A DNA stretch of 64,000 nucleotides. Origin: an uncultured candidate division Zixibacteria bacterium (GTDB lineage: Bacteria; Zixibacteria; MSB-5A5; UBA10806; 4484-95). Shown one piece after another: positions 1,144 through 13,796 of the stretch. The stretch is taken from NCBI GenBank assembly GCA_963668625.2, contig CAXXKA010000008.1:192001-256000 (forward strand). Direction: 5' to 3'. Every line of letters starts with the position of its first letter. The stretch's first letter is position 1. Both the position numbers and the translations under genes were made by a program. The notes beneath the pieces were generated by a model. It ran no database searches. It saw only the letters and a program-made list of their open reading frames with translations, and was not told the origin of the DNA.

Positions 1144-1208
1144 ATGGGGGAGATTGGGTATGACAGCTCAATTATTTGAAGTTTTGGACATTCATGACCG
1201 GGGGAATA

Positions 1209-3269
1209 ATGTTTATTTCGCAAATTAAAATAAATAACTTTAGAAACTTTAAAAATGAAGTCGTAATAGATTTTAATCCAGGAATCAATGTTATAATAGG
1301 TGAAAATAATTCAGGTAAATCAAACCTTCTTAAAGCACTTTCACTACTGTTTGATTCTAATTCTACAAAGCGATTAGATGTTGACGATTTTAACAAAAAC
1401 ACTTCAATTGAATGCTTAAAAAGAGAACCACCTAAAGTAACAATAACAGCTTTAATTGATGAATCACAAAATGAAGAAAAATACTCAGATGATTTAGTTA
1501 CGGTATCAACGTGGTTAATTCAATTAGAAAAGCCTTATAAAGCTCAGATAACATATATATTTTCACTCCCAGAGAAGGAACATGATGATTATAGAACATC
1601 CATGAATAAGAGCAATGGTAATGATATTGAAGATTATTGGAGATTAATTAAATATAAGTTTATTAGAAAATATATATATAAACTATATGTTGGTAATCCT
1701 GAATTTGAGAATGTATTGGACTCAGATTCTATAAGTAAATTTGATTTCCAATTTTTAGATGCCATTAGAGATGTTGAAAGAGATTTATTTACAGGAAAAA
1801 ATACTCTTCTTAGAGAAGTATTAGATTTCTTTATGGACTATGATATTAAAATATCCGGCAAAGATAATAGCGAGCAACAAGAAGAGATTGATAAGAGAAA
1901 GAATGAATTTTCGGAAAATGCTAAAGTCCTAGTAGATAAACTAAAGAAACGTATGGTTGATGGTAAAAATGAAATGCTTGAATATGCCAGCTCAACAGGT
2001 GCTTCTATAAGTAACTCGATGTTAGATTTTGACGGTCATATTCTTGACACAGAATTGTACTCTGCATTAAAACTAATATTAGAATATGAAACAGGGATAA
2101 AGATACCAGCTTCAAGAAATGGCTTAGGATATAACAATTTAATTTATATATCATTATTATTAGCCAAAATGCAAAAAGACGCTAGAGGGGATTATTTAGG
2201 TAGTAATGCTAAAATATTCCCTATTCTGGCTATCGAGGAACCAGAGGCACATTTACATCCATCGATGCAATACAAGTTTTTGAAGTTTCTAAAAGATAAT
2301 CAGAAAGATAAGGCAAGGCAGATATTTATAACTACTCATTCGCCCAATATAGCATCTGCAGTTGATTTAGATGAGATACTAATATTGCAATCCAAAGATA
2401 ATGAAAACATAAAAGTATCATATCCTGGTTTAGTGTTGTCTGGGGATGAGAATAAATCGTCAAAGGCTTATGTTAGAAGATTCCTTGATGTTACAAAATC
2501 TGATATGCTTTTCGCAAAAAGAATTATATTTGTTGAGGGGATTGCAGAACAATTATTAGTATCGATATTTGCAAAGATACAGGGTATTAATATTGAAGAT
2601 AAACATATTGCTATAATTAATGTAGGTGGAAGATATTTTGACCATTTTTTAAAATTATTTTGTAACCATGATAATGGTATTTATAAAAAAGTAGCATGCT
2701 TAACTGATTTAGATCCAATGATGAGGAAAGACGGTGGAAGCTTTGAGGCTTGTTATCCTTTTGAATTAAATACTGAAGATGGTTGTGAATATAAATCTTA
2801 TTCAAATGATTTAGTTGATAAGGATTTCCCTGGTGGAAATGTACGAGTATTTAGTCAAGAAAAAGGAAGAGGGAAAACATTTGAATATGAATTGGTTTTA
2901 GCTAATCCTTGTTGTGATTTCCTAATAACTGATAGTTTACATAATAGCGCAGAAATTGCTGATTTGATGAATTCATATAATGATGATAAATCAATAATGG
3001 AAATGCTAGAAATATTGAGTGATACCGGTGTTGAAAGCAAACGTATTAGAGATGGTATGTTAAAATTAAAAACTGGTGATTGGGAGGAAGGTGAAATAAA
3101 AAAGCATCTTATTGCTGCGCGTTACTTAAATTCTGTCAACAAGGGTGAAAACGCTCTTGAGATTGCAAGCAAATTAGAAGAGAAACTAGGCAATCTCAAG
3201 GAAGGAGAAAACGTGGCATTTAACGTACCCAACTATATAAAAGACGCTCTATTATGGATAACGGAATAG
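1209..3269 (+). CDS. gajA: OLD-family ATP-dependent endonuclease (ABC ATPase + TOPRIM), Gabija GajA-like
   Basis: Walker A GENNSGKS, GLGYNNL signature region, Walker B IEEPEAHLHP, TTHSP, TOPRIM IFVEGIAE and TDLD; likely start ATG 1209 after GGGGA. Confidence 0.85.
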   Translation: MFISQIKINNFRNFKNEVVIDFNPGINVIIGENNSGKSNLLKALSLLFDSNSTKRLDVDDFNKNTSIECLKREPPKVTITALIDESQNEEKYSDDLVTVSTWLIQLEKPYKAQITYIFSLPEKEHDDYRTSMNKSNGNDIEDYWRLIKYKFIRKYIYKLYVGNPEFENVLDSDSISKFDFQFLDAIRDVERDLFTGKNTLLREVLDFFMDYDIKISGKDNSEQQEEIDKRKNEFSENAKVLVDKLKKRMVDGKNEMLEYASSTGASISNSMLDFDGHILDTELYSALKLILEYETGIKIPASRNGLGYNNLIYISLLLAKMQKDARGDYLGSNAKIFPILAIEEPEAHLHPSMQYKFLKFLKDNQKDKARQIFITTHSPNIASAVDLDEILILQSKDNENIKVSYPGLVLSGDENKSSKAYVRRFLDVTKSDMLFAKRIIFVEGIAEQLLVSIFAKIQGINIEDKHIAIINVGGRYFDHFLKLFCNHDNGIYKKVACLTDLDPMMRKDGGSFEACYPFELNTEDGCEYKSYSNDLVDKDFPGGNVRVFSQEKGRGKTFEYELVLANPCCDFLITDSLHNSAEIADLMNSYNDDKSIMEMLEILSDTGVESKRIRDGMLKLKTGDWEEGEIKKHLIAARYLNSVNKGENALEIASKLEEKLGNLKEGENVAFNVPNYIKDALLWITE

Positions 3270-5044
3270 ATACAATAACTCTTAAAGACTCCGATGAATT
3301 GCTTAATGATATTGAGCATCATTTTAAGCTTATTGCCGGCCCCGGTGCGGGTAAAACGCGTTGGTTGACTAATCATATAAAAAATGTCCTTCATAATTCT
3401 AAAAGGTTAAAAAAATGTAGGAAAATTGCTTCTATTACATATACAAATGTCGGGGTTAATACAATTCGTGAGAGGCTTGGCGAAGTATCCGAGCATGTTG
3501 AAGTAGCTACTATTCATAGTTTCCTTTATAAACACATTGTCAAACCTTACATATTTTTACTTGCTGATGAATATAATATTAATGTTGCCCTAATTGATGG
3601 CCATGATGAACATATCGTTCGAATTAAAAAAGTAAAAGAATGGATAAGTAATAATATTAGACAACTCCGATACCTTTATAAGGATTTAGATTTAACTAAA
3701 CAACACTTAGCCAATTTATCTTGGTATTATGAAGAAGATGATTGTTTATTAAAGGTGAGAGATCATAAGGACTATAATAAACGATTCAAATTGGATGATG
3801 GAAGCCAATTGCCTTTTATTTTAGATTATAAAAAGCATCAGCAAATATATTTTCAGTATAAACAAACTTACTGGGGAGATGGCATTATAGACCATGAAGA
3901 TGTGCTCTTTTTTAGTTTTCAATTAATTAATAGATTTGAGGAAGTTAGAAGGATATTGAGGTCAAAGTTCCCTTATTTTTTTTTAGATGAATTTCAGGAT
4001 ACGCATCCGATTCAGACTAGCATAATATATAGATTAGCTGAAGATGAAACTATTATAGGTGTTATTGGAGACGATGCTCAGTCTATATACGGTTTTCAGG
4101 GTGCTGATCTTGAACAGTTCAGGAATTTTTCTTTGCCAAGTATTAAGATTTATAAAATAGAAAATAATCATCGAAGCACAAATGATATAATAAAAGTACT
4201 AAATCATATGAGGGATGATCTTGTACAAAAAAACATTGAAGATAAAACCGGAAGAAGGCCAACCTTAGTTATAGGAGAAATTCCAAGAACGATCAAGAGA
4301 GTTGAAAAATTAGTAAATAATGATCTATTTAGTCTAAGTTATGCCAACGTCACCGCAAATGAAATGAAATATGGAATAAACAGGCCGACAGGCGGTGGTA
4401 TTTATGATATTTTTAATGATAGTAATTATTCTAGAATGAAATTAATGATAGCGGCTATTAATGCTGTGGAATATGCAAGATATAATCAATTTCGAGATTC
4501 GATTAAATCATTATCTAATCGTTTAAAAATTCAAGATAAATTTAAAAGGAATAGCTTAGCTTTATCAATAGTGAAAGCATTATTAAATGAGTATAACTCT
4601 TTCAGATCTGTCAAGCTTATTAGTTTTTATAATATTTTTAAAGATACATATGAAAAGTATTCAATTGATAAAGTGCCATCTCTTAGAAACAATACAAAGC
4701 CATATGAATTTTATAATTCCATTACTTATAAAGAAGTCGCTTTGTACGTTAGATTCAATGAAGAAGAAAGCAGGCATAGAACTATCCATAAATCAAAAGG
4801 TGAAAATCTGAAAAATGTTTTAGTTGTGGTTAGAGGTAAGTTTGGGAGAGAATTCGATGAAACAGATGATTTAAGCTTTCTTTTAGTGCCTAACTTAAAC
4901 GACGAAAATCATCGAGTCTATTACGTCGCCATGAGCCGAGCTGAGGAAAATTTATTTATTAATGTTCCTTCTTTAACGGATGGTAGTAAAGAAAAGCTTC
5001 GGGAAATAGGATTCGATATAATGGATATTGGTCAAACAGGTTAA
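3254..5044 (+). CDS. gajB: UvrD-like SF1 helicase, Gabija GajB-like
   Basis: AGPGAGKT, TYTN, TIHSF, DEFQDT, GDDAQSIYGF, NHRS, TIHKSKG, YVAMSRA motifs; overlaps the OLD nuclease stop. Confidence 0.85.
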   Translation: MDNGIDTITLKDSDELLNDIEHHFKLIAGPGAGKTRWLTNHIKNVLHNSKRLKKCRKIASITYTNVGVNTIRERLGEVSEHVEVATIHSFLYKHIVKPYIFLLADEYNINVALIDGHDEHIVRIKKVKEWISNNIRQLRYLYKDLDLTKQHLANLSWYYEEDDCLLKVRDHKDYNKRFKLDDGSQLPFILDYKKHQQIYFQYKQTYWGDGIIDHEDVLFFSFQLINRFEEVRRILRSKFPYFFLDEFQDTHPIQTSIIYRLAEDETIIGVIGDDAQSIYGFQGADLEQFRNFSLPSIKIYKIENNHRSTNDIIKVLNHMRDDLVQKNIEDKTGRRPTLVIGEIPRTIKRVEKLVNNDLFSLSYANVTANEMKYGINRPTGGGIYDIFNDSNYSRMKLMIAAINAVEYARYNQFRDSIKSLSNRLKIQDKFKRNSLALSIVKALLNEYNSFRSVKLISFYNIFKDTYEKYSIDKVPSLRNNTKPYEFYNSITYKEVALYVRFNEEESRHRTIHKSKGENLKNVLVVVRGKFGREFDETDDLSFLLVPNLNDENHRVYYVAMSRAEENLFINVPSLTDGSKEKLREIGFDIMDIGQTG

Positions 5045-5146: not shown

Positions 5147-6544
5147 ATGGATTATTACAAACGAATCAAAATCGCCCAAATTCTCAAACAGGCCGATAAG
5201 GCCGTCGATGATGCCATCGTTTTAGGCTGGGTGCGCACCCGGGCCGATAAACCCAATATGACCTTTTTGCAGGTCAATGATGGCAGCACACTTAATAATC
5301 TGCAGATATTCGTGGAAAATCCCGAACGGTTCGCTGATATCGAGAAGATGAAAACCGGCAGCTCGATCCGCGCCCAGGGCAAACTCGTGCCCGCCCCGGA
5401 TCGTCCGCATAAGATAGAACTTCACCCGGAAAGCCTGACATTATTAGGCGAGTGCCCCTCCGATTACCCGATGCAGAAGAAACGTCACTCGTTCGAGTAC
5501 CTTCGCGAGATAGCTCATCTGAGGCCCCGCTCCAACACGTTTGGGGTGATCAACCGGTTCCGCTCCAAGATGGCTTACGCGGTGCATAAATTTTTCCAGG
5601 ACAGGGATTTTTACTACATCCACTCGCCCATAATCACGGCCACTGATGCCGAGGGCGCCGGCGAGACATTCCGGGTAACCTCGCTTGATATGAAGAACCT
5701 GCCCATGGCCGAGGGCGCTATCGATTACAACGAGGACTTTTTCGGCATGGAGACATTCCTGTCGGTATCGGGACAGCTCGAGGCCGAGATACTGGCTACG
5801 GCAATCGGGGATGTTTACACGTTCGCGCCCACTTTCCGCGCCGAGAACTCCAACACCAGCCGTCACCTGAGCGAGTTCTGGATGATCGAGCCGGAGATGG
5901 CGTTCTGCGACCTGTTCGAGGATATGACCTTAGCCGGTGAGTTCCTCAAGTACCTGTTCCAGTTCGGACTCGAGAACTGTGCCGAGGAGATGGCGTTTTT
6001 CGACAAGTGGATTGACAAGGACCACATCCGGATAAAGACCCTGGAGAAAGTGATCAACACCGATTTCATCCAGTGCGAATACGGCGAGGCGGTGGATATA
6101 CTGATGAAGGCCAAAAAGAAATTCGAGTTCCCGGTTAGCTGGGGAACCGATTTGCAGTCCGAACACGAGCGATATCTGTGCGAGGAGTATTTCAACGCGC
6201 CGGTGATGGTGTACAACTATCCCCGCGATATCAAGGCGTTCTACATGCGCGTAAACGATGATGAGAAAACCGTAGCGGCCGTGGATGTCCTGGTGCCGCT
6301 GGTGGGCGAGATTATCGGTGGCTCCCAGCGCGAGGAGCGTTTCGATGTGTTGGAGAGCCAGATCGAGAAGTTCAATATCCGCAAGGACACGGTTGACTGG
6401 TATCTCGATTTGCGTCGATTCGGCACGGTACCGCATGCCGGTTTCGGGCTGGGGTTTGCGCGGGTACTGATGTATATGTCGGGGATGACCAATATCCGTG
6501 ATGTCATCCCGTTCCCGAGAGTGCCCCGCTGGGCCAAGTTTTAG
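5147..6544 (+). CDS. asnS: Asparagine--tRNA ligase
   Basis: GWVRT, HLRPRSNT, VSGQLEAE, PTFRAENSNTSRHLSEFWMIEPE, GGSQREER, GFGLGF, RDVIPFPR. Confidence 0.97.
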   Translation: MDYYKRIKIAQILKQADKAVDDAIVLGWVRTRADKPNMTFLQVNDGSTLNNLQIFVENPERFADIEKMKTGSSIRAQGKLVPAPDRPHKIELHPESLTLLGECPSDYPMQKKRHSFEYLREIAHLRPRSNTFGVINRFRSKMAYAVHKFFQDRDFYYIHSPIITATDAEGAGETFRVTSLDMKNLPMAEGAIDYNEDFFGMETFLSVSGQLEAEILATAIGDVYTFAPTFRAENSNTSRHLSEFWMIEPEMAFCDLFEDMTLAGEFLKYLFQFGLENCAEEMAFFDKWIDKDHIRIKTLEKVINTDFIQCEYGEAVDILMKAKKKFEFPVSWGTDLQSEHERYLCEEYFNAPVMVYNYPRDIKAFYMRVNDDEKTVAAVDVLVPLVGEIIGGSQREERFDVLESQIEKFNIRKDTVDWYLDLRRFGTVPHAGFGLGFARVLMYMSGMTNIRDVIPFPRVPRWAKF

Positions 6545-6583: not shown

Positions 6584-7339
6584 TTAAAGCTTAACTTTGC
6601 TTAACGAAAACAAAGCGAAAGATAACGCGACTATAGTGACAATAAATAGAATTAATAATTGCAGCAGATAGTCGGCAGGAAGGTTATTCAAATAACATCC
6701 GCGGAATAAATTGCAGATATAAGTCAGCGGATTAATTAGCGCTATCCAGCGAATAACTGCCGGCATCCTGTCGATCCCATAATACATCGAACTGGCAAAT
6801 GTCAACGGTAGGGATACCAGGGTTATCACTACCGCCCGCACATCCTCGCGAGGCAAGTATATACCACCGATCATGCCCAGTGAAAACCAGATACCCGCGC
6901 CTAAAATTAGTGTTATGATAAAAATAGCACTATTAAATAAAGTAACTTCAGGCAAGTTTTTAGCTAGTATGACAGCAATCATCATTATGAGTAATATCTT
7001 TATCAGGGTCAGACAAAACTGAAAAATGTATTTGCCCCAGAAATACCCCGTTAACGAGGCTTTAGACATAGCGATAACCGATAATATACCCGTGCGTGAA
7101 TCCAGCGATAAAAAAGAAAAACTGGTACCGAAAAGGAAAAAAGTCATATAACCGAACAAGCCAGGAGCAAAAAATTCTATATAGCTGACTTGCGAATCAG
7201 CCATGGCTATTTTGCCGATATTTCCCGATAGCGCCGTGGCAAATAACAATATCATAAATACCGGCGTCGCAAAATGCGAAACGGCGCCGAATATGCTGCT
7301 AAAAGTAACTTTTATTTCCCGCCAAATTATAGCATTCAT
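6584..7339 (-). CDS. ABC-2 type exporter permease
   Basis: About 6 TM segments, SYIEFFAPG and INPLTY motifs; adjacent to ATPase. Confidence 0.85.
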   Translation of the reverse strand: MNAIIWREIKVTFSSIFGAVSHFATPVFMILLFATALSGNIGKIAMADSQVSYIEFFAPGLFGYMTFFLFGTSFSFLSLDSRTGILSVIAMSKASLTGYFWGKYIFQFCLTLIKILLIMMIAVILAKNLPEVTLFNSAIFIITLILGAGIWFSLGMIGGIYLPREDVRAVVITLVSLPLTFASSMYYGIDRMPAVIRWIALINPLTYICNLFRGCYLNNLPADYLLQLLILFIVTIVALSFALFSLSKVKL

Positions 7340-7341
7340 GA

Positions 7342-8250
7342 TTACTCTCCCTTAACCGCTCTGAACACATCTATAAGCGATGGTTTTTCTACATTCACTC
7401 CCGTTATAGCGCCAAATTCACCAAGCTTGCTTAGAAGAGGTCGAAGATCAAAATTAACATCATCCACATGAATTGTGACACAACCATTTTTATGGCTGAT
7501 CGGATAACCTAATTTTTGCATCAATGATTCATCTATCGATTGTTCGAAAGTGACTTTGATTTGCCGGCCTGCAGCCTGGTTTTTTAATTGATCGGGTGTG
7601 CCGATTTTAATAAGTTTCCCCTGCTGGAGAAAGCCAATCCTATCCGCTAAGCTCTCAGCCTCAGCCATATCATTCGTACATAGAATGACTGTCCATTTAT
7701 TCTCTCGTGTATACTTTTTTATCATATCCCAAATTTTAAACTTACCGACAACATCAACACCCAGGGTAGGTTCATCAAAAATTACTACCGGTCTATCCGA
7801 TAGAAAGCAGCGGGCAAGCTGCAATCTTCTCACCTGGCCACCTGATAGAGTCATTACATTAGCATATTTTTTTTCGGCTAAATCGAATTCACTTAATATC
7901 TCATCAGCCAGTTTATGCCATTTTTTCATATCTATTTGTTCGAGTCTGGCATAGAACTTAAGATTATCATAAACCGAAAGGAAAGCATCAATGGCGGCCC
8001 CCTGTGACATCAGAGTGATTGCCCGGCGAATATCTTTATAGTCGCGGATTAAATCCTTTCCCAATATCGTGGCGTTTCCGGATGTGGGCTTTTGCAACGT
8101 AGTTAATAAATTAACGGTTGTGGATTTACCGGCGCCATTGGCTCCCAGAAAAGTGAATATCTCTCCCTGTTCGATACTTATAGATAGGTCATTAATAGCC
8201 TGGATTTTACCATAGTGTTTGCATAGATGCTCGGTTTTAATTACTATCAC
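7342..8250 (-). CDS. ABC exporter ATP-binding protein (DrrA-like)
   Basis: GANGAGKS, LSGGQ, FDEPT; GTG start after AGGAG. Confidence 0.92.
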   Translation of the reverse strand: MIVIKTEHLCKHYGKIQAINDLSISIEQGEIFTFLGANGAGKSTTVNLLTTLQKPTSGNATILGKDLIRDYKDIRRAITLMSQGAAIDAFLSVYDNLKFYARLEQIDMKKWHKLADEILSEFDLAEKKYANVMTLSGGQVRRLQLARCFLSDRPVVIFDEPTLGVDVVGKFKIWDMIKKYTRENKWTVILCTNDMAEAESLADRIGFLQQGKLIKIGTPDQLKNQAAGRQIKVTFEQSIDESLMQKLGYPISHKNGCVTIHVDDVNFDLRPLLSKLGEFGAITGVNVEKPSLIDVFRAVKGE

Positions 8251-8261
8251 GTTAGTCTCCT

Positions 8262-9652
8262 TCAGGCCACGGGATCGGCTTTAGGGCAGATAGGATTGGT
8301 TTGATATATAGTACCAAAAGCTTTCCATGCATCTCTTGAACACCAGCCATTCTTAATAACGCATAAATCATAATGTTCACAATCGTAACAAATGGTTCCC
8401 TGGAACAATGAACGATCGGGTGCAAAAAAGCCTTTGAATCTTTGAGAATTCCAAATTTCTGATAATGTTTGTCGGGAAGTATCACCTAGTACGTATTCAT
8501 CTTCGCATGGTAATTGTTCACAAGGAATTACCTTGCAATTTGGTAATATTACCATACCCGTCCTTCCTGCTGAACAAGCTCCTCTATTAGCAAATCGTTT
8601 TATTTCTTCTTCCTTTGTTTTCGATTTGCTATTTTCAATAGATTCACCAGTGCCGGATAAATGTAAATAAATATCGGGGTGTTTGCTTACAAAATTATCA
8701 ACGAATTCCCTTAACTTAGTTTCTTGAGATTCTAACAGGAACAATTCATCTGAATGCTTATATGCTGATCTAAAATATCTGCTCAGGCGCATTACCTTTA
8801 CTCCAATGTTGTAAAGTTCACACACCAATTCGGGTACATTCTCAGCATTCAGACAGGTAACAATGGTGTTGGTCGAGACCTCAATTTCATTTTTCTGTAA
8901 TCTCTTTATTGTATCAAATGCTTTTGCAGCATACATAGAAACACCTGTCATTATTTTTGCAAGCTCATTTTCAAAGGCATCAATGCTGATTTGAATACTG
9001 CGCAAGCCTATATTTTTCAATCGTGAGATAGTATTATCGGTTAAAAATTGTTTTGTTGACAACTGCAAATCTATTTTTGCTTCAACAATCATCTGAATAA
9101 TATCTATTATATTTTTATGAACAAAAGGATCTCCACCCGATAAGGTTATCACTACTACCTTATTAGTCTTAGCCTGCTCGATAATTTTTGCAATATGCTT
9201 GAACTCCATTTCACCAAGGTGACATGATGATTCATCCTGCGCATAGCAATATATGCAATTTCTCCCCCCGCATTTCTGTGTTATGCACAATACCAAACTT
9301 AATGGGAACTCTAAACAGAAATTATCTAAATTTATTTGTTTTTCGGTATAATAAAATCAAAGGGGTTGTCACTCCTAATAATATCGTTAACTTCTATCAA
9401 GTATTCTTTCCACTCTGTTTGAAGGCGATTTAGAAACTCTATCGCTTCTTGTTCTGTTATAGAAAACAAATATTCTACGATTTTCCTAATATCATCAATA
9501 CTGTTAGCCCCATTAAAATGAGATAAAACAATAGCCGTATTGGGATGTATTGTCTTCATGTCTTTATAATCAAATGAGTCCTCGTTATATTTCACAAATG
9601 CAATATTAGTTCTACATCTATACAACTTGCAGCTAGGGTCCAAGGCAAGCAT
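8262..9652 (-). CDS. Radical SAM/SPASM peptide maturase with N-terminal RRE/PqqD-like domain, split by a -1 frameshift at about 9339-9343
   Basis: ORF 8262-9296 has CGGRNCIYC, LSGGDP, QISIDA and SPASM cysteines (CSAG...IPC...CYDCEHYDLC..GWC...CP). ORF 9332-9652 joins it in frame if one A is added in CCGAAAAAC (reads ..IPKKQINLDNFCLEFPLSLVLCITQKC..). Confidence 0.8.
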
Positions 9653-9785
9653 TTTTACAGGTCAAGCACGTCATTTCACAACCGATCGAACATCCAATAC
9701 CATAAGAAATTGCAATGCCTTCAATTGTATTTTTGGAAATTAGACCTGCATTATCCATTGCTGTTTTAAGATCTGTTAGTGACAT
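9633..9785 (-). CDS. Cys-rich RiPP precursor peptide, 50 aa (MSLTDLKTAMDNAGLISKNTIEGIAISYGIGCSIGCEMTCLTCKNACLGP)
   Basis: Hand-translated; below the ORF-track cutoff; purine-rich RBS AAGGAAGGG; first gene of the rSAM-ABC operon; C-x3-C-x3-C-x2-C-x3-C core. Confidence 0.8.
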   Translation of the reverse strand: MSLTDLKTAMDNAGLISKNTIEGIAISYGIGCSIGCEMTCLTCKNACLGP

Positions 9786-10387
9786 TTTCCCTTCCTTTTC
9801 ATGCAATTTAATATTCAGTAAACGTTATCTGAAATAATTTAATTAACAAAAGGGGCGGGCCTCGTTTACGCTCCAAACTATAACCACATAAATAAGGTAG
9901 CATTTATTAATGCCTTTATTTGTCTATTAATTAAAACGCTTAATGTATATTAAAATCCATTTATATTCTCGTGCATTGCAATAGGAGTTTTAGTGATCTG
10001 ATTACGTTATACATTTGAACCATTTTTAGGATAAAAACAGTTGTAATAAATGTGTTTGTATAATATTCTTTTGTCAAAATATCCCTTTCTAAATACGAAG
10101 GTTTTATGTGATTAATTACATCTATTAGATCTATAAGTCAATAATTATAAATATGGTAATATATGCGTAAACAAAAATACTTATATATATATATAAAGCA
10201 ATATTGCTCATTAGGTTAACTTGTTTATCATGCTCCTTGATTCGGGGTCAAAGATTTAATGGATAGTATTACGGTTCAGGTTAAAAATATACAAGGACAG
10301 GACAATTCACTTGCTACTCCACTGGCCCATTGCACTGGCAAACCAAATGGCAATGTCAATTTTAACGTGAGCAAAATGCAAAATAGT

Positions 10388-10415: not shown

Positions 10416-10430
10416 AGAGATTCGATATTG

Positions 10431-10494
10431 GGGCGGTTAGCTCAGCCTTATAGAGCACCCCGACTTGTAGTCGGAAGGGCCGCATTGAAAATTA
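10431..10494 (+). pseudogene. Truncated tRNA-like sequence (5' two thirds; anticodon arm reads TGT)
   Basis: Shares GGGCGGTTAGCTCAG..TAGAGCACC..GGGCCGCA with the downstream tRNA-Val; arm CCGA-CTTGTAG-TCGG; no T-loop or 3' acceptor strand. Confidence 0.6.
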
Positions 10495-10506
10495 GATAGT
10501 TACTTT

Positions 10507-10580
10507 GGGCGGTTAGCTCAGTTGGTTAGAGCACCTGCCTTACACGCAGGGGGCCGCAGGTTCGAGTCCCGCACCGCCCA
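10507..10580 (+). tRNA. tRNA-Val(TAC)
   Basis: Acceptor GGGCGGT/ACCGCCC, D arm GCTC/GAGC, anticodon arm CCTGC-CTTACAC-GCAGG, GTTCGAGT T loop; CCA not encoded. Confidence 0.97.
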
Positions 10581-10714
10581 TTTGTCCCGCAACGACTTAC
10601 GAGGATTTAGCCAACCTCAAAAAACGCACTATGCCGATTTTATGCCAGGGATTTGGCATATTTAATCTTAGCTGATCACTATTGGCCCAATTTATAAGGT
10701 TCAAATTGGTGCAA

Positions 10715-11182: not shown

Positions 11183-12337
11183 ATGCGTATTTTGCAAAAA
11201 ACAGTGCAATCGTTTTCTATTCTGTTACTCACGTTTTTTTTCATCCAATTTTTTCTTATTGGATGCGGTGAAAGAGATAATTCAGTCAATGTGGGTGTGA
11301 TTCTTCCCCTAACCGGTGGTGCTGGGAAATACGGTATTGATGCCAAAGAAGGAATTGAACTAGCGGTTAGTTTAACAAAACCTAGAGGAGAATTAGCCGG
11401 CAAAACCATAAAACTTGCAATTGAAGACGATCAAACATCTCCATCACAAACCGTCAGTGCGTTTCAAAAACTTATTGCCTCTATAAAACCATCTGCTGTA
11501 ATTGGGGGGATGACAAGCACTAGTGCTCTTGCAGCAGCCCCGATTGCTGAGCAAAATGGAGTAGTTTTTTTGTCTCCCTCAGCGTCAACTCCTGATCTTA
11601 CAGATGCGGGCGATTTTATATTTCGAAACGAACTATCGGATGCTATTGGAGGAATTGAACAAGCAGTTTTTGCTAGAGATTCTTTAGATTTATTTAAAGT
11701 AGCTATTTTGTACATAAACAACGACTACGGTATTGGAGTAAAAAATGCTTTTACTAACACTTTCAAGAGCTATGGTGGCAGCATTGTTTGTAGTGAGCCA
11801 TTTGAAGCCGATGCTCAGGATTTTAGATTTGTACTGACCAAAATAATCGCAAGCAAGCCACAAGCACTATTTTTCATCGCATATAAAGAATCAATACCTA
11901 TTCTTAGGCAATTAAAAGAACTTGGAGCCAAATTTAAATTACTAAGCACGCCAGTTTTTGAAGATCGTGATGTATTAAATCAACTTGGTGACCTAGCGGA
12001 TGGAGTTATCTATGTATACTACGGTGGTTTTTCCGTGGACGCGGACAACCAATTAGTTAAGAATTTTGTAGACAAATTTAAAAACGCGTACGGACGTGAA
12101 CCAGGCTACTATGCTGCACTAGGATTTGATGCGATGAATTTACTAATTAATGCGATGGAGAATGGTGGTCTTTCAAGTGAGGAAATACGTGATGCTTTAT
12201 ACAAGATAAAGGATTATAGGGGGGTAACAGGTTTAACGAGTTTCACAAAGGATGGAGATGTTGAAAAACCAGTGATTTTTAAAGATGTGGAAAACGGGCA
12301 GTTTGGGATTTGGCAACGGAATAACGAAAATGAGTGA
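11183..12337 (+). CDS. livK: Branched-chain amino acid-type ABC substrate-binding lipoprotein (LivK-like)
   Basis: Lipobox LIGC, VGVILPLTG, EDDQ, SPSAS, NNDYG, GVTGLTSF. Confidence 0.85.
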   Translation: MRILQKTVQSFSILLLTFFFIQFFLIGCGERDNSVNVGVILPLTGGAGKYGIDAKEGIELAVSLTKPRGELAGKTIKLAIEDDQTSPSQTVSAFQKLIASIKPSAVIGGMTSTSALAAAPIAEQNGVVFLSPSASTPDLTDAGDFIFRNELSDAIGGIEQAVFARDSLDLFKVAILYINNDYGIGVKNAFTNTFKSYGGSIVCSEPFEADAQDFRFVLTKIIASKPQALFFIAYKESIPILRQLKELGAKFKLLSTPVFEDRDVLNQLGDLADGVIYVYYGGFSVDADNQLVKNFVDKFKNAYGREPGYYAALGFDAMNLLINAMENGGLSSEEIRDALYKIKDYRGVTGLTSFTKDGDVEKPVIFKDVENGQFGIWQRNNENE

Positions 12338-13796
12338 TAAGGTAAAGCGTTGGATATTTTGGGCAGCCGCTACAATTATATCAATTCTTGTCTCTTCGGC
12401 ACTTGTCGCAAATGTGCTTGATCCAACCTTGGAGGATATATTAAGGAACTGGCTTGGTAAGGATTCTGTAGAAATCCCATTTTGGGTCGAATTATTAGAA
12501 ACAATAGTGGTCGCCACTCTTACATTCCTTAGCTTAATATATCTAAGTAGTATAGCATATTTAAATCTTCGCGGTGTTCATGAAGAGGTGTTAAAAGAGT
12601 TAATGACTAAAACCATTGAAGATGATTTAAGGCGAGTCCACTTAGAAGTAATGAGAGATACTATCAATGATTTAATTAATAAGGGTTTACGAACAGTACA
12701 TGAGCAAATATTAAATGACACATTTAATGTCCAGGTAGCGAATAAGCTTAAGATTGTAATGAGTGCTTTAATGGAAGAATTGGCTAGGACCTCCGAGGCA
12801 GAAACATATTTTGCATATCATACGCTACTTAAACATACAACCGGAATGCGTAATTTAATAAATAGGATTGTAGATCTTCCGTGTCATCCTACGACAATGA
12901 GTGTACTGATTGATGATTATGGGAAGAAGGCCAATCAGTCCAAATTCCTGGTAGATTTTCCCACATTTCTTAAACTCGGAGAGACTCTGGTAGGGGTTTC
13001 CAAAAAGATGTGTTTTGTAAATACTACGCCACCATATGAGTGGTGGTATCTTAATCAATCTGGCCGAATAACTGAAACAACCGAGGCAATTAAATCCTAT
13101 AGGAATTGTATAGGTGAAAAGCTCACTGCAGGTGCTCAAGTAGGTAGAATTACCTTATTGAGGCATGAGGAAGCACTTACGTCGTTTTTAAAGTATGAAC
13201 TTGAAGGATATCATCAACGACGCGGAATAAATATCTTTGGGTCAGATCTTGATGACGAATCTGCCCTACCGGTCGTAGAATGGTTTCAGATTATTTTAAG
13301 GACTATTCAAACGCGTTTACAGTCGACAAAGGCGTACGCTGACGAAACACTGAAGAAAATTGAATCGGCCAAAAGTTCTAAAGAAAAGCTGATAAAATTA
13401 CTCGACCATATAAATCCAGATAGAAAAAAGTTTACTGGCGAGTTTGAACAGTTGTCAAAAGAATGTTCAGATCTAGTTATGGCTGATTTTAGTCCTTTGC
13501 ATTCACCCGAGAATGATGGTATTTATGTAATAAAACAACATCTAACTGAAGGTATGCAAGATGATTTTGAATCAGTTATGAGAGAAGAGGGTATTTTCTA
13601 CGACAATAATGACAGAGCGTATTTGCTTAGGATGGAAGAAGCAAATAGCGTAAATGTACTAATAGCAACTGTCAAAACGCTTTCAGAATCAGATTTGGGA
13701 AAAACAAATTTTAAAAGAATTCTGGATAACTTTGTTAACGCAGTTGGACAATCTCAGGCAGTTGGTTATTTTAGGAGTACTGCAAAGGCTTATTAA
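12330..13796 (+). CDS. Hypothetical protein, two N-terminal TM helices plus large soluble domain
   Basis: Long ORF; likely start ATG 12330 overlapping the livK end; two hydrophobic segments. Confidence 0.75.
   Translation: MSDKVKRWIFWAAATIISILVSSALVANVLDPTLEDILRNWLGKDSVEIPFWVELLETIVVATLTFLSLIYLSSIAYLNLRGVHEEVLKELMTKTIEDDLRRVHLEVMRDTINDLINKGLRTVHEQILNDTFNVQVANKLKIVMSALMEELARTSEAETYFAYHTLLKHTTGMRNLINRIVDLPCHPTTMSVLIDDYGKKANQSKFLVDFPTFLKLGETLVGVSKKMCFVNTTPPYEWWYLNQSGRITETTEAIKSYRNCIGEKLTAGAQVGRITLLRHEEALTSFLKYELEGYHQRRGINIFGSDLDDESALPVVEWFQIILRTIQTRLQSTKAYADETLKKIESAKSSKEKLIKLLDHINPDRKKFTGEFEQLSKECSDLVMADFSPLHSPENDGIYVIKQHLTEGMQDDFESVMREEGIFYDNNDRAYLLRMEEANSVNVLIATVKTLSESDLGKTNFKRILDNFVNAVGQSQAVGYFRSTAKAY

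Follow-up and report, generated by a model that had tools for sequence, protein, structure and literature searches.

A cysteine-rich peptide gene heading a conserved radical-SAM/SPASM and ABC exporter cassette with an interrupted maturase gene in an uncultured Zixibacteria bacterium: a candidate thioether system

A short cysteine-rich open reading frame (ORF) directly upstream of a radical S-adenosylmethionine (radical-SAM) enzyme gene raises two questions, namely whether it is a gene at all and, if so, what is done to its product. Here we address them for a locus in a 64,000-nucleotide stretch of DNA from an uncultured Zixibacteria bacterium (contig CAXXKA010000008.1, positions 192,001 to 256,000), which we call the window and whose positions are used throughout. 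A preliminary description of this stretch had proposed that a 50-residue ORF on its minus strand encodes the precursor of a ribosomally made and post-translationally modified peptide (RiPP), and that a radical-SAM maturase with a SPASM domain and an ATP-binding cassette (ABC) exporter belong to it. With a probability of roughly 0.6 we read the locus as one copy of a RiPP cassette with four genes, rare and conserved (precursor, 463-residue maturase and ABC-2 exporter pair), that would carry out leader-guided formation of Cys thioethers and whose maturase gene is interrupted here. The genes, their order, their conservation and their domains are observed, and from these we infer binding, chemistry and export.

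The precursor peptide and its family

The ORF at 9633-9785 on the minus strand encodes the peptide MSLTDLKTAMDNAGLISKNTIEGIAISYGIGCSIGCEMTCLTCKNACLGP. Its first 31 residues are free of Cys and carry the leader motif M-x-L-x-x-L-K-x-x-M-x-x-A-G-L, while Cys residues at positions 32, 36, 40, 43 and 47 form a core of the pattern C-x3-C-x3-C-x2-C-x3-C. Length, ribosome binding site, Cys-free leader and core were all found as they had been proposed. The automated ORF listing extends the frame upstream to a TTG at 9806 (57 residues); we place the start at ATG 9785, since all seven members of the peptide family described below open with M-[S/D/E]-L. At its other end the ORF shares 20 nt with the 5' frame of the maturase gene (ATG 9652), and genes with Pfam matches to an ABC ATPase and a permease lie downstream, which again agrees with the preliminary description.

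A search with the 344-residue radical-SAM piece encoded in the window returned six close relatives with 42-53% identity among candidates from 5.8 billion proteins. Two close loci, both returned by one genome-contig scan with the maturase alignment, were found in a Zixibacteria metagenome-assembled genome (MAG; locus L001) and in an Ignavibacteriales MAG (locus L002). In both of them a homologous ORF of 51-52 residues stands directly 5' of the maturase gene and is followed by the ABC ATPase and the ABC-2 permease in unchanged order. The proposal that a Cys-rich precursor heads the radical-SAM/SPASM and ABC unit is thus borne out at two of two close loci. The three peptides align from the first Met and have in common M1, L3, L6, K7, M10, A13, G14, L15 and four Cys. 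Between the loci, identity amounts to 41-51% for maturase, ATPase and permease and to 32-34% for the peptides, which is what a jointly inherited unit would show.

An exhaustive search of 1.84 billion representative proteins with a profile of the three peptides provided 17 matches. Six of these were short peptides of 50-52 residues (E-values 1.3e-24 to 1.7e-6): the window's own and the L001 peptide, which were the only two recovered by word-based searches, and four new family members (P0018, P0023, P0024 and P0025; E 6.6e-10 to 1.7e-6). Adding the ORF of L002 gave a set of seven distinct peptides. All seven carry the leader motif M-x-L-x-x-L-K/R-x-x-M/L-x-x-A-G-L, keep the spacing C-x(2-4)-C-x3-C-x2-C and end with a tail of exactly 7 residues behind the last conserved Cys. 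Invariant throughout are M1, L3, L6, A13, G14, L15 and four Cys, which in the window peptide correspond to Cys 32, 36, 40 and 43; the fifth Cys (47) is not conserved. Within the core Cys are the sole invariant residues.

Could chance alone have opened this frame in the 5' part of the maturase operon? The ORF is short, and neither Pfam nor NCBIfam holds a match for it, as one would expect of such a frame. However, its position, length, start, leader and Cys pattern are kept in three loci of different lineages and in four database peptides, and a Shine-Dalgarno-like site precedes all three copies that are known at the DNA level (GGAGG in L001 and GGGAG in L002, with a spacing similar to that in the window). 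The pattern C-x2-4-C-x3-C-x2-C is present in just 2 of the 6667 stop-to-stop segments of the window. A hidden Markov model (HMM) of the family, run on 2633 translated segments, picked out a single one in each of the window, L001 and L002 (E 2e-23 to 3e-25); the next-best match had E 0.77. A chance origin is already refuted by this conservation, and we assign it practically no weight. Because position, length, start, leader motif and Cys pattern are kept across the loci and the database peptides, the small ORF is, judged by comparison, a real and conserved gene. None of the seven peptides matched the RiPP peptide models in curated libraries, and a tblastn search of plasmids with the peptide gave no match.

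The remaining 11 of the 17 profile matches (in the range P0014-P0028) were long proteins, and all five that were scanned carry YadA_stalk. The peptide leader (positions ~4-31) resembles a stalk repeat of trimeric autotransporter adhesins of the form ...DLKDALDNGGVLDPTTGESLAVTY.... We rejected a kinship between the two: the repeats scored at most 12 bits against the seven-peptide HMM and have no Cys block. As far as the sequences tell, the likeness is probably a shared short helix-turn-strand motif and not homology.

The maturase and the state of its gene in the window

All six close homologues of the maturase are single proteins of 463-469 residues, which start with MLAL[D/H]P like the 5' frame in the window. 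An origin of this start as a by-product of the overlap with the peptide tail was rejected, as the two genes are 51 and 76 nt apart in L001 and L002 and the maturases yet start with MLAL[H/D]P. The 3' piece in the window matches the Pfam families Radical_SAM (5e-21) and SPASM (1.6e-10). The six homologues share, without variation, three cluster Cys and seven C-terminal Cys, all of which are present in the window, the SPASM Cys following the pattern C-x12-G-x4-C ... C-x2-C-x5-C-x6-C ... C. The protein has in this way both hallmarks of a radical-SAM/SPASM peptide maturase, a three-Cys motif for the SAM-binding [4Fe-4S] cluster and a SPASM domain with seven Cys (seven to eight expected, for two auxiliary clusters). 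In the SAM-cluster motif, the window, P0002 and P0003 space the Cys as C-x4-C-x2-C, and the other four of the seven proteins have the canonical C-x3-C-x2-C. The motif reads CGGRNCIYC in the window (9240-9270, minus strand) and in P0003, and the first two aligned Cys of P0002 are separated by four residues.

When the window protein and three homologues were compared with NCBIfam, their best scores were 83-110 bits against cut-offs of at least 231 bits, and none was reached. With the PqqE model (cut-off 381) they scored 72-110 bits (110 for P0002), and with that of the mycofactocin maturase (cut-off 265) 66-85 bits. A profile search of the Protein Data Bank (PDB) returned as nearest solved structures PqqE (6c8v, 2.6e-22), MoaA, SuiB and SkfB (5.3e-15, radical-SAM core only), with CteB being marginal (5e-4). 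GeoRSP, a tungsten-cofactor maturase, MoaA and SuiB were the other best curated or structural matches. By these comparisons the maturase is a rare 463-residue family that is absent from curated libraries, with a probably PqqD-like N-terminal domain, a radical-SAM core and a 7-Cys SPASM domain, and it lies outside every known sacti- or ranthisynthase family. The expectation that the system is probably uncharacterised was thus justified, by the maturase scores as well as by the seven unmatched peptides.

The N-terminal domain comprises ~105 residues and is fused to the radical-SAM/SPASM part in the homologues. A second hhalign comparison, of nine N-terminal domains with three PqqD sequences, gave a P-value of 1.8e-4 and a probability of 49% over 48 columns in the helix region. 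Residues 1-110 of the ESM Atlas model of P0006 (predicted template modelling (TM) score 0.87) gave TM scores of 0.66/0.71 to a stand-alone PqqD family cluster; by features the nearest named clusters of this model were PqqD (0.87-0.88), which we use as a lead only. From sequence and model together, it is likely, not proven, that this part is a PqqD-like recognition domain of the RiPP recognition element (RRE) type.

In the window, as assembled, the maturase gene is broken (Table 1). With tblastn all five homologues used as queries matched it in two pieces: frame -1 (9652-9353) covers residues 1-100, and frame -3 the remainder. The first frame ends directly after DFIIPKNK. One more base in the A5 run would bring the spacing between DFIIP and the first cluster Cys to 25 residues, as in P0002. 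Beyond the early TGA, 5 more codons (RRLT and a stop at 8249-8247) still match the C-termini of the homologues. In all three loci the maturase stop overlaps the ATPase start, as GTGA in the window (ancestral stop), ATGA in L001 and TTGA in L002. The peptide, ATPase and permease genes of the window are full length, and its other long ORFs are intact up to 1089 residues, such that the assembly is not generally error-prone. Given the frameshift and the early TGA next to intact cassette genes and other ORFs, the local maturase gene is probably damaged and the copy, as assembled, defective or decaying; L001 and L002 are intact copies.

Two ways in which the gene could be read through were considered and set aside. 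A programmed -1 frameshift or transcriptional slippage at G-AAA-AAC is unsupported, the L001 and L002 genes being unbroken at the DNA level and the A run being just 5 long. A reading of TGA as Gly (code 25) was rejected in view of the many long table-11 ORFs in the window. The earlier assessment of the cluster as complete does not hold: besides the frameshift and the early stop, a hairpin of both close relatives is absent. L001 (9950-10000) and L002 (1061-1136) have a 12-13-bp hairpin between the peptide and maturase genes (-20.6 and -25.6 kcal/mol, z-score about -4.5 each), which may act as an attenuator or transcript stabiliser favouring the precursor. The window has no intergenic space between these genes and no such hairpin (z-score 0.2).

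More distant maturase relatives were found with tblastn on 25 plasmid records, two loci of which were examined (L003 and L004, ~31-32% identity). Both have Cys-rich small ORFs directly upstream that share the layout of the family, which lends the cassette distant support. On a Paenibacillus peoriae plasmid (L003; NZ_CP011513.1, 5538-7424) the maturase, a full-length match with 32% identity, is split into two annotated coding sequences; two tandem unannotated Cys-rich ORFs precede it, one with the spacing of the window peptide, C-x3-C-x3-C-x2-C-x3-C, and no ABC genes were found nearby. A Mesorhizobium plasmid (L004; NZ_AP023260.1, 4232-7467) encodes a 78-residue peptide with a Cys-rich C-terminus, a 503-residue maturase relative (31% identity) and, after it, a second radical-SAM/SPASM protein whose nearest model is TIGR04463 (221 bits, cut-off 525). 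None of the peptides of L003 and L004 belongs to a curated family.

Proposed chemistry and its alternatives

Based on the conserved parts we propose the following sequence of events. The conserved N-terminal leader (M-x-L-x-x-L-K-x-x-M-x-x-A-G-L) would be held by the PqqD-like domain of the maturase. The radical-SAM cluster would cleave SAM, and the resulting 5'-deoxyadenosyl radical would take a hydrogen from a core carbon. A core Cys, probably placed on an open iron site of the auxiliary SPASM cluster, would then close a thioether, and this closure could be repeated for up to four invariant Cys. The ABC-2 pump would export the product or protect the producer. Removal of the leader, if it occurs, would be left to an enzyme encoded elsewhere; no leader peptidase had been seen at the locus before, and indeed no peptidase belongs to the cassette in any of the three loci. 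The lack of an invariant acceptor residue leans towards links to alpha-carbons.

How does the cassette compare with characterised thioether systems? The C-x3-C spacing between small or hydrophobic residues is reminiscent of thuricin CD. According to two publications (PMC8172795, PMC10288494), the sactipeptide systems subtilosin/AlbA, thurincin H/ThnB, thuricin CD/TrnC-TrnD and StsA/StsB combine an ABC transporter with a precursor that has a leader, a core and several Cys, and with a radical-SAM maturase that bears a SPASM or twitch domain and, at its N-terminus, a domain of the RRE type. The cassette agrees with this, its RRE-type domain being a likely one. The absence of a conserved acceptor side chain also fits the attack on C-alpha in sactipeptides. 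In hairpin sactipeptides, as described in part of PMC8172795, the acceptors lie C-terminal to the donors; such a layout with N-terminal donors is impossible here, because the Cys block sits at the extreme C-terminus with 7 residues after it. Different from the sactipeptide systems are further the missing protease gene and the known hosts, which are uncultured Zixibacteria and Ignavibacteriales and not Bacillota. The AlbA model (29 bits against 850) surfaced for the distant L004 protein only.

With ranthipeptides, including SCIFF peptides (CteB, Tte1186, PapB), the cassette shares a Cys-dense C-terminal core and a radical-SAM enzyme with a SPASM domain and, probably, an RRE. Seven SPASM Cys, as in the cassette maturase, are given for the thioether-forming enzymes QhpD, CteB and Tte1186 in a section of PMC10352776, and PMC10177961 describes for PapB and Tte1186 that the substrate Cys or SeCys binds directly to the auxiliary cluster. 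The Gln after the G-x4-C auxiliary Cys of the cassette maturase (C-E-Q) recalls the His-Gln of CteB (PMC10288494), an equivalence in position that is taken from the motif only. Unlike in ranthipeptides, an Asp, Thr or Asn acceptor is not conserved among the cores of the seven peptides. The Cys block at the peptide end fits neither the usual sactipeptide hairpin nor an acceptor-defined ranthipeptide. Cys-rich radical-SAM RiPP families in NCBIfam (AC3_0185 'Cxxx', Cys-every-fifth CefB, CcpM, TIGR04463) likewise combine a short Cys-spaced peptide with a neighbouring radical-SAM/SPASM maturase, but the seven peptides match none of their peptide models and their maturase models are not among the best matches; the sole trace is the Paenibacillus plasmid peptide against TIGR04118 (E 0.077).

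Several results weigh against a thioether-forming RiPP cassette. The maturase falls far short of all curated thioether synthase models, those of sactisynthases included: it scores 46-54 bits with StsB (cut-off 625) and 45-54 bits with PapB (cut-off 340), and the SCIFF maturase model is outside its best 25 matches. PqqE, the nearest solved structure by sequence, is no thioether synthase. No acceptor can be named, as the core has no invariant residue other than Cys, and unlike in hairpin sactipeptides just 7 residues follow the Cys block. The RRE that had been described for the maturase obtains moderate support overall and weak support from sequence: the second hhalign comparison and the model of P0006 speak for it; against it, Pfam PqqD matched just one of seven N-terminal domains (E 0.017), the PDB profile search with this domain returned nothing relevant and a first hhalign comparison, with one PqqD-bearing protein (P0008), gave a probability of 0.3%. 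Against the family HMM the peptides of L003 and L004 were not significant (E 0.77 and 7.4, the second L003 peptide being unmatched). A scan for sigma-70 promoters found 15 sites where 15.7 were expected, none of which stands out, and neither promoter nor terminator sites were in excess of those in shuffled sequence. Finally, the frameshift may be an assembly error.

An alternative is that the same cassette performs other chemistry, be it crosslinking through C-C or C-O bonds, epimerisation or a different change of Cys. The four invariant Cys would in that case form disulfides or a metal or iron-sulfur site of the product. According to Precord et al. (PMC10288494), the chemistry of an uncharacterised radical-SAM protein is virtually unpredictable without very high identity to a known enzyme, and the best matches of the maturase named above are not thioether synthases. 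Furthermore, the conserved block ends in C-x3-C-x2-C, an iron-sulfur ligand spacing, owing to which the peptide weakly matches a radical-SAM methyltransferase model (E 0.095). We consider such other chemistry unlikely, as the Cys, being the sole invariant core residues, point to themselves as the reaction sites and as the 7-Cys SPASM domain is also that of QhpD, CteB and Tte1186. Failing the sactisynthase family tests does not exclude the chemistry either, because sactisynthases are paraphyletic (PMC10288494). Thioether crosslinking is, on the sequences at hand, the most likely chemistry for the window peptide. The likeness to PqqE leads to another candidate function, in which the peptide would give rise to a small redox cofactor, like the precursors of the PQQ (pyrroloquinoline quinone) or mycofactocin pathways, and not to an exported peptide. 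The cassette has a probable PqqD-like recognition domain and a radical-SAM/SPASM enzyme, here fused, and PqqE is the best curated and structural match for several members. We regard a cofactor precursor as highly improbable: the scores stay far from the PqqE and mycofactocin maturase cut-offs, neither pqqB, pqqC and pqqF nor other genes of these pathways lie near the loci, and the ABC-2 exporter is conserved in three of three loci. In PqqA, moreover, the invariant residues are Glu and Tyr, as against Cys in the cassette peptide, whose C-terminal residues are otherwise unconserved.

It is quite possible, if on balance doubtful, that the local copy is functional, either because the break is an assembly or homopolymer error or because a working enzyme is split into a 106-residue recognition protein and a 344-residue radical-SAM/SPASM protein, comparable to PqqD/PqqE. 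The break sits exactly in the interdomain linker, discrete pairs of RRE and radical-SAM proteins are common (PMC10288494), and an A5 run is a typical site of indel errors. Also the peptide, ATPase and permease genes are intact, and the peptide retains the 7-residue tail of the family. On the other hand, the remaining long ORFs of the window are all unbroken, the early TGA adds a second lesion to the maturase gene, and the maturase homologues are without exception single proteins. The first standard start of the 3' piece, a TTG, has no visible Shine-Dalgarno sequence, and starting there would remove part of the first strand before the cluster motif. We thus favour a damaged maturase gene within an otherwise conserved thioether cassette.

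The cassette is of a known kind, combining a Cys-rich precursor with a probably RRE-containing radical-SAM/SPASM maturase and an ABC transporter, but this peptide and maturase family is in no curated library, and we found no description of it in the open-access literature that was searched. A speculative extension, to which we give only a small chance, is that the family forms a RiPP class of its own: a C-x(2-4)-C-x3-C-x2-C block 7 residues from the end with a crosslink topology unseen in sacti- and ranthipeptides, a separate enzyme lineage, no dedicated protease, and a four-gene unit spread among uncultured Zixibacteria and Ignavibacteriales. Possible topologies would have the acceptors on the N-terminal side of the donors, or would form a compact multi-thioether or metal-binding cage.

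Radical-SAM-modified peptides are among the main sources from which new peptide chemistry and narrow-spectrum antimicrobials are drawn, and to our knowledge the characterised thioether peptides come almost all from Bacillota. Being compact, protease-free, conserved between distant uncultured lineages and new to the curated libraries, the four-gene cassette lends itself to heterologous expression, for which the intact L001 and L002 copies are better starting points than that of the window. The precursor layout, with its Cys-only invariant core, fixed 7-residue tail and no room for C-terminal acceptors, is the likeliest source of a new ring topology. For annotation, the locus illustrates that a 50-residue gene is recognisable by its conservation despite a broken partner enzyme.

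Exporter genes and genomic surroundings

Table 1. Features of the cassette and its flanks in the window (positions in nucleotides)
Feature	Position	Strand	Remarks
Precursor peptide gene (50 residues and stop)	9633..9785	-	ATG 9785, TAG 9635-9633; frame read from sequence
Shine-Dalgarno-like AAGGAAGGG, purine-rich	9789..9797	-	5' of ATG 9785
Maturase 5' fragment, PqqD-like domain (likely), 106 codons	9332..9652	-	TAA 9334-9332; frame -1, aligns to homologue residues 1-100
A5 run, most likely site of a 1-nt deletion	9339..9343	-	frame A matches to DFIIP, frame B from QINLD
Maturase 3' fragment: radical-SAM core (C-x4-C-x2-C) and 7-Cys SPASM	8262..9356	-	open from 9356; first standard start TTG 9296
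Early TGA	8262..8264	-	GGA (Gly) in L001; comparison with homologous loci
ABC ATPase, DrrA type	7342..8250	-	Pfam ABC_tran 3.6e-29, DrrA-type 1.6e-70, DrrA1-3_C 4.4e-08
ABC-2 permease, DrrB type	6584..7339	-	Pfam ABC2_membrane 9.2e-21
asnS	5147..6544	+	NF003037, 626 bits against cut-off 414
tRNA-Val	10506..10581		flank of cassette

An ABC ATPase together with a separate ABC-2 membrane protein, as encoded downstream of the maturase gene, is the composition of a DrrAB-type ABC-2 exporter. The window ATPase aligns over its full length with those of L001 and L002 (45-47% identity) and scores 238 bits with the drrA model TIGR01188, under the subfamily cut-off of 312. For the permease the identity is 47% to L001 (residues 1-251, full length) and 51% to L002 (residues 1-218).

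Each of the three genomes has other flanks around the cassette. In L001 the neighbours are Rex, endonuclease IV, YchF and Lon, and in L002 a GNAT acetyltransferase gene lies downstream and an ORF without Pfam match upstream. Near the cassette of the window lie asnS, tRNA-Val, a Gabija system and a solute-binding protein. In all three loci the maturase gene is AT-rich, with a GC content of 32-36%, compared to 49.5% for the L001 locus overall. Differing flanks and low GC content fit a cassette that moves as a unit. An insertion between asnS and tRNA-Val had been suggested; both flanks were confirmed, and for the insertion itself the differing flanks and the low GC content are the only evidence. 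No mobility gene, integrase, target duplication or flanking direct repeat was found at the cluster. Integration of an island at the tRNA was rejected, there being no flanking repeat or integrase and the cluster lying on the 5' side of tRNA-Val.

A truncated tRNA-like sequence lies at 10428-10490 on the plus strand, 76 nt upstream of tRNA-Val, and is 81% identical to the first 32 bases of the latter. Acceptor, D and anticodon arms are present, with a loop that reads like anticodon TGT, but a complete T arm is missing; the sequence was called neither by ARAGORN nor by Rfam and may be a remnant of a rearrangement. The Gabija anti-phage system occupies 1176-5044 on the plus strand, with GajA at 1176-3269 (932 bits, PADLOC PDLC00069) and GajB at 3254-5044 (665 bits, PDLC00119). 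Its GC content is 31% compared to 41% for the window overall. asnS has 52-55% GC and the first kilobase (1-1000), which includes a Peptidase_S51 gene (228-935), ~50%, with 31-40% for their neighbours. Further along the plus strand, an ORF of 503 residues at 12285-13796 had no match in Pfam, NCBIfam or PADLOC and overlaps by 65 nt with the next ORF, a short-chain dehydrogenase.

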